Below, one piece after another: positions 16,227 through 16,971 of a stretch of DNA of 53,630 nt. Within the stretch, counting starts at the first letter, position 1; each line of letters opens with the position of its first letter. Origin of the DNA: an uncultured Candidatus Saccharibacteria bacterium (GTDB lineage Bacteria; Patescibacteriota; Minisyncoccia; UBA6257; GWB1-50-10); contig CAZMFA010000003.1 in assembly GCA_964565515.1 (NCBI GenBank), forward strand, positions 1 to 53,630. Reading direction: 5' to 3'. Both the position numbers and the translations under genes were made by a program. The notes beneath the pieces are model-generated. The model did not search any database. It saw only the letters and a list, made by a program, of their open reading frames with translations, and was not told where the DNA came from.

Positions 16227-16339
16227 ATGAATCCCGTTAGAAAGTTATGAGTGTTCATGGTTTCTATGGGGATATGTTAAAATAATAGCAAGGTCGCGAT
16301 TCATAAATGATAATGATTTTAATTTTCTAACGGGATGAA
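16227..16339. repeat. Start-codon-associated inverted-repeat element 1 (ATGAA-TCCCGTTAGAAA...TTTCTAACGGG-ATGAA)
   Basis: 13-bp perfect IR at 16231-16243 / 16324-16336; ATGAA at both ends. Confidence 0.85.
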
Positions 16340-16769
16340 TCTCAACAAGGTGTTCATTTTCGGCAATCTTACGAGGGATCCGGAGCTTCGGCAGACGCCC
16401 GGCGGTCAATCCGTCTGTTCGTTTGGCGTTGCCACAAACAGCTTCTTTTCGGACAAGTCCGGTCAGCGCCAGCAAAAGACGGAATTTCATAATGTTGTGG
16501 TGTGGGGACGGCAGGCGGAAGTTGCCAATCAATTTTTGAAGAAGGGAAGCTCGGTTTTGATCGAAGGAAGACTCCAAACGCGGTCTTGGCAGGATAAGCA
16601 AGGCGTGCAGCGGAGGACGACCGAAATCGTGACCGAGCGGATGCAATTGGGACCGAGGACGGGCGGAGGCACGCCCGCGTCGGCGCCGGAAGAAGATCGT
16701 CGCGAAGAGGAATTACCGGAAATCAATCTTGAGGAAACCGAGATAAAGCCGGAAGATATACCGTTCTGA
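16335..16769 (+). CDS. ssb: Single-stranded DNA-binding protein
   Basis: [23 protein letters not shown], acidic C-terminal DIPF. Confidence 0.98.
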
Positions 16770-16774
16770 AACGA

Positions 16775-16830
16775 ATAGTTAGTATGCGGTACGAAGTATT
16801 TCGTATACTAAATACCGAATACTGAATACA
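16775..16830. repeat. Heptamer hairpin repeat, family C (ATACTAA/ATACCAA) copy 1
   Basis: Shares GTATTTCGTATACTAAATAC with 30952-31018. Confidence 0.65.
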
Positions 16831-16842
16831 ATATACAAATCA

Positions 16843-16971
16843 ATGAATCCCGTTAGAAATCGCGTACGCATGTCAAAAGAGAAAATAATGAATAAAAAAC
16901 TGGTCGGAAATACCAAAGATAACAGACGCAAAGCGCAGGGCGCGTATGCGTACTATTTCTAACGGGATGAA
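16843..16971. repeat. Start-codon-associated inverted-repeat element 2
   Basis: 14-bp IR at 16847-16860 / 16955-16968, inner IR GTACGCAT/ATGCGTAC, ATGAA at both ends. Confidence 0.85.

Follow-up and report, generated by a model that had tools for sequence, protein, structure and literature searches.

Miniature inverted-repeat elements at the start codons of ssb, rpsR and other genes in a Candidatus Saccharibacteria genome

Organization of the ssb and rpsR loci

The 53,630-nucleotide stretch of DNA analysed here (the window) is contig C3 of a 591-kb Patescibacteria (Candidate Phyla Radiation, CPR) assembly from an uncultured Candidatus Saccharibacteria bacterium of a mine-drainage community; the assembly (G000) has 50 contigs and is 96% complete. 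The window contains two short inverted-repeat elements located exactly at the start codons of ssb and rpsR, and all features listed for these two loci lie on the forward strand. Direct reading of the sequence reveals a shared layout, ATGAA-T-CCCGTTAGAAA...TTTCTAACGGG-ATGAA, at 16227–16339 (ssb) and 16843–16971 (rpsR), with ATG-to-ATG spacings of 108 nt and 124 nt respectively. A repeat search of the window identifies exact direct repeats of 17 nt (ATGAATCCCGTTAGAAA) and 16 nt (TTTCTAACGGGATGAA) at both elements, as well as inverted arms of 17 nt (94%) and 14 nt (100%). The arms of the terminal inverted repeats are exact over 11–13 nt in both copies.

Upstream of the first element is rpsF (15797–16225), an open reading frame (ORF) for a ribosomal protein S6-like product. 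Its stop codon TAA (16223–16225) is followed by a single T (16226) and then by the left ATGAA (16227–16231). This left copy is the start codon that ssb had ancestrally, and it retains its native upstream context. The ssb-site element (16232–16335) has the ends T+CCCGTTAGAAA (16232–16243) and TTTCTAACGGG+A (16324–16335), the arms proper spanning 16233–16243 and 16324–16334, and an AT-rich interior. Its final base, A at 16335, is also the first base of the rebuilt ssb ATG. The ssb gene (144 aa; 16335–16769) begins with this second ATGAA; its product matches Pfam SSB over residues 3–105 (E 1.3e-39), and its orthologues begin MNLNK. At the second site the left ATGAA (16843–16847) is followed by an element (16848–16967) that ends in T+CCCGTTAGAAA (16848–16859) and TTTCTAACGGG+A (16956–16967), with arms proper at 16849–16859 and 16956–16966. 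The rpsR gene, encoding the 69-aa ribosomal protein S18 (16967–17176; Pfam Ribosomal_S18, E 7.5e-21), starts with the ATGAA at 16967. Because Pfam SSB matches from residue 3 and Ribosomal_S18 matches rpsR, both genes start at the second ATG of their pair.

Each left ATG opens an upstream ORF (uORF). The ssb-side uORF has seven codons (MNPVRKL*; 16227–16250) and is followed by two putative mini-ORFs, one at 16247–16285 with an ATG that overlaps the TGA of the first uORF (ATGA), and a seven-codon one at 16307–16330 that stops at a TAA within the right arm, 4 nt ahead of the ATG of ssb. The rpsR-side uORF is 39 aa long (MNPVRN...AYAYYF*; 16843–16962) and its TAA (16960–16962) lies inside the right arm, 4 nt ahead of the rpsR ATG. 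Both elements are predicted to form stable RNA structures (−35.2 kcal/mol at ssb and −38.5 kcal/mol at rpsR; z = −3.9 and −4.3; none of 200 shuffles as stable), with closing stems that span 16231–16336 and 16847–16968 and take in the A and U of the true AUG. A sequence-only reading of the window had claimed the ATGAA-bounded arms and their spacings, the second ATG as the gene start, the 1-nt gap after the rpsF stop, the uORFs that stop within each element and the inclusion of the AT of the true ATG in the stem; the repeat search, Pfam matches and coordinates given here agree with it on each of these.

A family of elements at start codons

The arm 11-mer is present in 52 exact copies in the G000 genome and its reversed control in none, and thus the arm repeats in the window are not due to chance. 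Paired elements, defined by arms 50–200 nt apart with no more than two mismatches in total, number 33 and are 66–121 bp in size; 21 of them have no arm mismatch. Twenty-eight are located exactly at the start of an ORF (downstream ORFs 56–818 aa). ATG flanks both sides in 27, and one more, at secY, has a decayed left ATG. The host genes include those for SSB, S18, L4, S5, SecY, SecF, PolA, ATP synthase alpha and delta, PNPase, DivIC and PPDK, and the Pfam profiles of several target genes align from residue 1–4. The orientation of the interior is constant relative to the host gene, and the interiors constitute unrelated families: family A (about 112–121 nt), which includes the rpsR copy; family B (about 106 nt); and a number of singletons, among them the ssb copy. 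Interior lengths across copies range from about 43 to 196 nt.

A crude census of G000 places the same 5-mers at 207 gene starts versus 317 intergenic non-start sites, and the bias toward start codons (P for at least 28 of 29 = 9e-11) is good to an order of magnitude only, as the gene calls are rough. These elements almost certainly constitute a family of transposable elements of the miniature inverted-repeat type (MITEs) at start codons. The sequence-only reading had proposed a site-specific miniature mobile element tolerated in essential genes, and this is borne out: further copies, empty sites (described below) and a preference for ATGAA-like targets are all present.

The five elements at non-start sites include one that encloses a tRNA, two GC-rich 66-nt variants, a copy upstream of rplM and an in-frame copy in a pseudouridine synthase gene. 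In the first (L010:1501–1611, corresponding to G000:C2:52579–52689) the arms surround a complete tRNA-Leu(CAG) gene identified by ARAGORN; the element is set within an apparent remnant of another tRNA-Leu gene and its flanks are not of the ATG type. GC-rich variants of about 66–78 nt with the same or nearly the same arms are found at non-start sites at G000:C4:36695–36760, G000:C40:350–415 and G000:C2:25453–25530, and their GTTGA- or GYCAA-type flanks suggest a subfamily with another target. The copy at G000:C5:9626–9741 belongs to family A and lies 7 nt upstream of the ATG of rplM (L13, L245) with ATAAA duplicated, showing that sites other than start codons can serve as targets; G004, a related genome, has a copy in reverse orientation with ATAAA-type flanks as at rplM. 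The pseudouridine synthase copy (G000:C12:1172–1273) is a 102-nt element with a C...G outer pair that is in frame within an RluA-type gene (downstream ORF L234), where it adds about 36 aa and has 138 codons open upstream; its flanks are ATGAA on the left and GTGAA on the right.

Target duplication and rebuilding of the start codon

The flanks of 74 elements from G000 and the fetched parts of G004 were compared. In 58 of these the 4-nt flanks are identical and are of seven kinds: TGAA (43), TGGA (8), TGAG (3), and TAAA, TGCA, TTTA and TTGA (1 each). The left repeat is preceded by A in 68 of the 74, and the outermost pair of the element is T...A in 66 and C...G in 5. A C...G outer pair is associated with GTG at the right start and ATG at the left, as in the C12 copy and in L199, a longer element described below. 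The flank identities and the C...G copies both favour a duplication of 4 nt (TGAA) in which the start codon is rebuilt by the last base of the element itself, and this is the probable arrangement; a 5-nt duplication plus one extra T is a possible alternative. The duplication of ATGAA claimed from the sequence alone therefore holds as to its type, although its exact length is probably 4 nt, with an element base completing the start.

Empty sites and mobility

The ssb start is empty, reading TAA-C/T-ATGAAYCT..., in G008, G007 and G005 (SSB identity 95–97%) and in G003; empty ssb sites of relatives read TAA-C-ATGAATCTC. At the same position G002 has the same insertion, with the G000 interior, and the third ssb mini-ORF is kept in this near-identical copy. 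G001 has a decayed copy that lacks the left ATG, G004 has a different interior of 121 nt, and the site is also occupied in G048 and G038, in two other families. G006 (L037, G006:C33) contains an element of about 130 nt with other arms (CCTGC...GCAGG) and the same ATGAAT repeat, showing that other arm families with the same habit exist.

The rpsR start is similarly empty (...ttgccATGAAACAGCAAAAACAG) in G008, G007 and G005, and equivalents are found in G002, G003 and G001. In G004 (L035/L079, G004:C14) it is occupied by a tandem pair, family B followed by family A; either the second element entered the ATGAA regenerated by the first, or the order was the reverse. The atpA, atpH and polA starts are occupied in G000 and precisely empty in G005, G007 and G008, with atpH and polA occupied in G004 too. 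The search for empty alleles that the sequence-only reading had called for thus finds them at five genes.

Public DNA contigs from a similar habitat show the same two states. A 108-nt skip (16226 to 16335) is present in one contig each of runs X3 and X4 and a 124-nt skip (16842 to 16967) in one contig of run X4; the contig from X4 has differences at 37 of the 427 flanking bases and represents a related strain. Runs X1–X3 contain the occupied form, X1 and X2 being possibly the samples from which the genome came, and it is therefore unlikely that the copies are assembly artefacts. The precise empty sites in the closest relatives and in contigs of related metagenomes indicate that the elements are mobile.

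Comparison of G000 with G004 shows that 14 of 27 G000 start sites are occupied in both; the family is the same at 10 of these and differs at the other 4. At orthologous sites, copies resemble each other no more than random pairs do (ranks 3–25 of 25), and mean copy identity is 0.74–0.76 within genomes as well as between them; these similarities are compatible with vertical inheritance and with repeated insertion at shared sites. Arm mismatches in copies found by interior alone amount to 15 of 308 (4.9%) in family B and 3 of 264 (1.1%) in family A, far below the interior divergence of about 17% from consensus. Such conserved arms fit two scenarios: one in which a copy keeps moving only if its ends are intact, and permissive start codons, limited in number, are re-used as elements turn over, and another in which the host now keeps the hairpins.

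Full-length elements encode a GIY-YIG nuclease

Longer elements with the same ends were sought among arm pairs 200–1500 nt apart in fetched loci, after which the relatives were searched with one of the products. Eight intact full-length copies were identified (L191, L198, L200, L201, L203, L205, L206 and L209), with 275–283 bp between arm ends, and the left 17-mer of L191 is identical to that of the window. Each contains a single ORF of 94–96 codons, MNPVR(D/K/S)...RFLSLTG*, that begins at the duplicated left host ATG and ends at the TGA of the host ATGA or, in L198, at the TAA of the arm. L199 has the same full-length form with an in-frame TGA. The three products tested match Pfam GIY-YIG (PF01541; E 3e-16 to 3e-15) over residues about 10–78. 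The nearest solved structure is the UPF0213 protein BH0048 (1zg2; E 6e-6), and NCBIfam gives weak sub-threshold matches only. The full-length copy in G004 (L206) occupies the dnaJ start, and 28 of the first 30 nt of family B are identical to it, as expected of a deletion derivative. The sequence-only reading had pointed to full-length copies carrying a recombinase or nuclease as something to look for, and the nuclease-bearing form is found in relatives.

A nuclease homologue (E ≤ 0.001) is present in 49 of 60 relatives, and a wider search yields 5,987 nuclease relatives at E ≤ 1e-5, most of those listed being 95 aa long, with full coverage and named only 'GIY-YIG nuclease family protein'. The G000 genome search detected no nuclease homologue (tblastn with three nuclease sequences, best E no better than 0.05) and no arm pairs 200–2500 bp apart enclosing an ORF. 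Because the G000 assembly has no nuclease gene, its copies are non-autonomous MITEs. Two other candidates for long elements were rejected: arms 3.5 kb apart in G053:C7 enclose ordinary genes and no transposase, and arms 865 bp apart in G004:C2 belong to two separate miniature copies.

The full-length element is 275–278 bp long and consists of 12-nt inverted repeats (T/C-CCCGTTAGAxA ... TxTCTAACGGG-A/G) around a single nuclease gene, with neither a start codon nor a stop codon nor a promoter that belongs to the element. These features suggest how it might insert. Insertion would take place at (A)TGAA-type start codons with duplication of 4–5 nt. The ATG that the host gene had before, along with the upstream signals native to it, would become the start of the element's reading frame, and the last base of the element together with the duplicated TG would rebuild the host start codon at the far end. 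The nuclease is probably the mobilising enzyme.

Distribution

The arm 11-mer is present in 35 of 61 genomes of an order-wide sample, counting G000. A search for the 15-mer ATGAATCCCGTTAGA in a sample of 400 other genomes from across the phylum finds it in 22, with no control matches. Searching one genome per species with the 17-mer yields at least 119 stretches, mostly in Patescibacteria of many classes but also in Planctomycetota, Omnitrophota and a few other metagenome-assembled genomes; a few exact matches are expected by chance in a collection of that size, and short binned contigs may be misassigned. Among the first 82 occurrences examined the right arm lies within 260 nt in 72, nearly always followed by ATGAA and a long ORF. 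Viral contigs contain 28 stretches with the 15-mer, with the full architecture at an ORF start only in L268, L271 and, in two copies, L273; the remainder look like chance matches in a very large collection. With so few viral contigs carrying the full architecture, the data do not show phages to be a vector.

Proposed translation through the elements

A 0.6-Mb genome has no spare copies of ssb, rpsR, secY, rplD, rpsE, polA and the ATP synthase genes, and insertions at their start codons should be lethal, yet such insertions are common. The reading frames of the elements bear on how the host genes remain expressed. The right end is productive in all three frames: TTC TAA CGGG ATG places a stop 4 nt before the start, CGGG ATGA has a stop overlapping the start, and AAC GGG ATG gives an in-frame fusion. 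In G000, 17 of 27 start-codon copies have a frame that is open from the left ATG to the right end (15 ending at TAA, 1 at ATGA and 1 fused, with 10 stopping prematurely) versus 4.0±1.8 expected from shuffles of the element interiors. The corresponding numbers are 22 of 30 in G004 (TAA 22, ATGA 0, fusion 0, premature 8; expected 4.5±1.9) and 48 of 99 in other genomes (TAA 33, ATGA 7, fusion 8, premature 51; expected 17.6±3.5). Among the family-B copies, 29 have a length of 106 nt and carry about 15 substitutions each; one of these has a premature stop, versus 7.85±2.4 in simulations (P≤0.0005). Stop codons are thus selected against in the element frame, and the near-equal variability of the three codon positions in family B (0.16/0.15/0.21) indicates that it is the openness of the frame, and not the peptide, that is conserved.

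None of 27 copies has a Shine-Dalgarno (SD)-like 4-mer before the right ATG, and such 4-mers are found 4–18 nt upstream in just 123 of 567 crudely called G000 genes; a search with a short conserved motif located no 16S 3′ end in the G000 assembly. Given the rarity of SD-like motifs and their lack at the right ATG, direct use of a true AUG within a stem of −35 kcal/mol should be difficult.

The open frames and the selection against stops are expected of translation through the element followed by re-initiation, and not of a segment that is skipped or excised. In such a translational relay, ribosomes would initiate at the left ATG before or while the stem forms, arriving for ssb by coupling from the rpsF stop 1 nt upstream. 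Translation through the element would melt or pre-empt the long hairpin that would otherwise bury the true AUG, and the ribosomes would terminate beside this AUG and then re-initiate there. The rpsR copy shows the design intact, as its 39-codon uORF ends 4 nt ahead of the gene's ATG. At ssb the insertion is older and decayed, with a seven-codon first uORF and then two mini-ORFs, the last of which ends at the same TAA; from their arrangement in the sequence, the mini-ORFs at 16247–16285 and 16307–16330 could continue the relay. We consider a relay of this kind to be, on balance, the probable main reason that the insertions are tolerated. The best overall explanation, and one that is reasonably probable, is that the window copies are MITEs of a very small start-codon element that is common in Patescibacteria/CPR and uses such a relay.

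Several observations weigh against this explanation or parts of it. The first uORF stops early in 10 of 27 start-codon copies in G000, including ssb, in genes that need to be expressed, and the relay is therefore either not indispensable or would work via putative restarts. Family-B indels are not biased to multiples of three (about 2 in frame and about 6 out of frame), the left ATG is decayed in one G000 and six G004 copies, and the copies within a family are related, such that the shuffle and simulation tests overstate their independence. The open frames could also be inherited in part from the nuclease ORF. The left AUG itself abuts the stem, and initiation there needs the kinetic assumption that the hairpin has not yet formed; the public sequencing runs that hold the locus include no RNA run. 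As for mobilisation, GIY-YIG enzymes hydrolyse DNA, and we know of no step by which they would integrate DNA or generate a duplication. The 5-mer target alone cannot explain the start-codon specificity, and current mobility within G000 is unsupported, as the 96%-complete assembly contains no nuclease homologue.

Other explanations account for some of these observations. One is that the hairpins, although once mobile, have been retained by the host to act as a shared switch for about 5% of its genes (those for ribosomal proteins, SecY, ATP synthase, SSB and PolA among them), for example through dependence of initiation on upstream translation or on a stem-binding factor. Arms far better conserved than the interiors in a genome assembly that lacks the nuclease, together with the 14 of 27 sites shared with G004, would agree with this. 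Arm conservation is equally expected, however, if only copies with intact ends transpose; copies at orthologous sites are no closer than random pairs (ranks 3 to 25 of 25), the target genes have no obvious function in common, and G005, G007 and G008 are empty at all five starts checked (ssb, rpsR, atpA, atpH and polA), so that the hairpins are dispensable. Co-opted control is thus unlikely to be the main explanation, and the translational control suggested by the sequence-only reading is possible as a secondary, co-opted role. A further proposal is that an RNase III-type enzyme cuts the stem, as is reportedly the case for Correia elements of Neisseria, leaving a short leader before the true AUG and making the uORF unnecessary. 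The length and stability of the stems (13–17 bp plus extensions, −35 to −38 kcal/mol) speak for this, the rarity of SD-like motifs fits initiation on short or absent leaders, and the copies with broken uORFs would be accounted for. Such processing leaves the excess of open frames, the selection against stops and the three-frame right end unexplained and would uncouple ssb from rpsF, and we regard it as quite improbable.

Precise splicing of the hairpin out of the RNA, or a ribosomal hop from the first AUGAA to the second, had been offered by the sequence-only reading as reasons for tolerance. Ribosome bypass has precedents in phage T4 gene 60 and the mitochondrial 'byps', and the identical 5-mers on either side of a strong hairpin do resemble matched take-off and landing sites, but the AUGAA at both ends is explained by target duplication. 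In bypass of the gene 60 type a stop codon stands right after the take-off codon and the gap is untranslated; here the first ATG is followed by AAT CCC GTT and no stop, and the frame through the 'gap' is kept open beyond chance, with stops selected against, which is needless for a segment that is skipped. Furthermore, the interiors are unrelated between families and vary from about 43 to 196 nt, a search of Rfam 15 with window positions 15500–17500 (E≤10) returned no family match, only four weak unrelated hits far below gathering scores, and simple initiation at the second AUG would make hopping unnecessary. Splicing and bypass are accordingly very improbable. The least credible proposal, which we give practically no weight, is a non-mobile leader motif that evolved in place before many genes. 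It would account for the identical 17-nt ends but is refuted by precise presence or absence between close relatives; moreover, the flanking 4–5-mers vary together with the target (TGAA, TGGA, TGAG, TGCA), different interiors are found at the same ssb site across genomes, the elements at G004 rpsR are in tandem, and nuclease-bearing full-length copies exist.

If the relay reading is true, this is selfish DNA that is phenotypically silent at the most sensitive base of a gene, and the elements are natural, portable 'translational couplers'. A wider reading, tentative and short of probable, is that the family represents an undescribed class of transposon whose sole gene, lacking its own start, stop and promoter, encodes a hydrolytic GIY-YIG single-strand nuclease of about 95 aa. 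It would persist by inserting at host start codons, using the initiation signals found there and returning ribosomes to a rebuilt start via a right end that works in all three frames, such that insertion into essential genes is nearly silent; the miniatures would keep the relay, and their strongly conserved hairpins may gate about 5% of the genes of an ultra-small bacterium. On the relay reading, the newly described small GIY-YIG single-strand nucleases would gain a concrete role as the engine of a mobile element, and the thousands of unannotated 95-aa 'GIY-YIG family proteins' in CPR genomes would be accounted for.

Relationship to known systems

Palindromic mobile repeats of Rickettsia (Ogata et al. 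2000, as cited in Delihas 2011) are reportedly tolerated in frame within coding sequences. The G000 copy that adds 36 aa to pseudouridine synthase is similar, as are some copies elsewhere that fuse in frame to the host N-terminus, whereas the window copies are out of frame with their genes and the family here is concentrated at start codons. The IS200/IS605 and REP/RAYT 'peel and paste' elements are moved by HUH tyrosine transposases and produce no target duplication. They resemble the present family in their hairpin-forming ends, a likely single-stranded substrate and a short asymmetric target beside one end, but differ in that the flanks here are duplicated and co-vary, and the only element ORF is a GIY-YIG gene (no systematic HUH search was made). 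Integron attC sites were considered and rejected: the order of the GTTAGAA/TTCTAAC boxes is the reverse of that in attC core sites, and the elements target essential genes of the chromosome. IS1380/piggyBac-like DDE families, which have CCC ends and a 4–5-bp duplication, had been a candidate source before the GIY-YIG copies were identified.

The family has many properties of bacterial MITEs: terminal inverted repeats, a duplication that varies with the site, small size without a mobilising gene, many copies, empty sites and a longer enzyme-coding element with the same ends. MITEs that are co-transcribed with adjacent genes, such as Correia/NEMIS of Neisseria, Nezha and ERIC (Delihas 2011, PMC3184786), are alike in size, terminal inverted repeats, target duplication and copy number, and also in having empty and filled sites, an RNA hairpin that is stable, and a longer relative whose ends are the same. 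They differ in being derived from insertion sequences that encode transposases, in their intergenic location and in their short targets. The REP2 repeats of Neisseria and similar repeats of Borrelia, as described there (PMC3184786), are located directly upstream of genes and supply a site for ribosome binding as well as an ATG fused to the ORF; REP2 thus supplies a start whereas the elements here duplicate one, and that account does not describe REP2 with spanning terminal inverted repeats, duplications, empty sites or a nuclease partner.

On the evidence of its main text, the closest published system to the full-length element is Ssn (Chenal et al. 2025, PMC11893778), a group of site-specific single-stranded DNA nucleases that are 94-aa GIY-YIG proteins with flanking hairpin repeats (NTS/SRM). 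These nucleases bind folded single strands and cut a few nt upstream in a variable flank, and the authors liken the repeat-gene-repeat layout to an insertion sequence. Both systems have a single-domain GIY-YIG protein of about 94 aa (here 94–96 aa, in relatives only and not in G000) and inverted-repeat DNA on both sides that recurs many times in the genome. They differ in that the elements here have one pair of 12-nt inverted repeats pairing across the element and not self-contained SRM hairpins, and in the start-codon location, the 4–5-nt duplication and the borrowing of the host start and stop. The published SRM motif has two matches in G000, versus 1–8 in 10 shuffles, and neither overlaps any of the 33 elements. 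The Ssn nucleases belong to CDD cd10448, and the comparison with them here is by size, domain and layout. The terms 'start codon' and 'Patescibacteria' do not occur in the main text of PMC11893778. The literature searched contains no description of MITEs or hairpin elements that sit on and rebuild start codons or hand ribosomes to a host gene, although the supplements of PMC11893778, which possibly list Patescibacteria, lie outside it.

Gene calling and neighbouring genes

At element sites, gene-calling programs will put start codons in the wrong place and predict spurious small ORFs. Upstream of the ssb site, the rpoC ORF (12133–15819) and the start of rpsF (15797) overlap by 23 nt.

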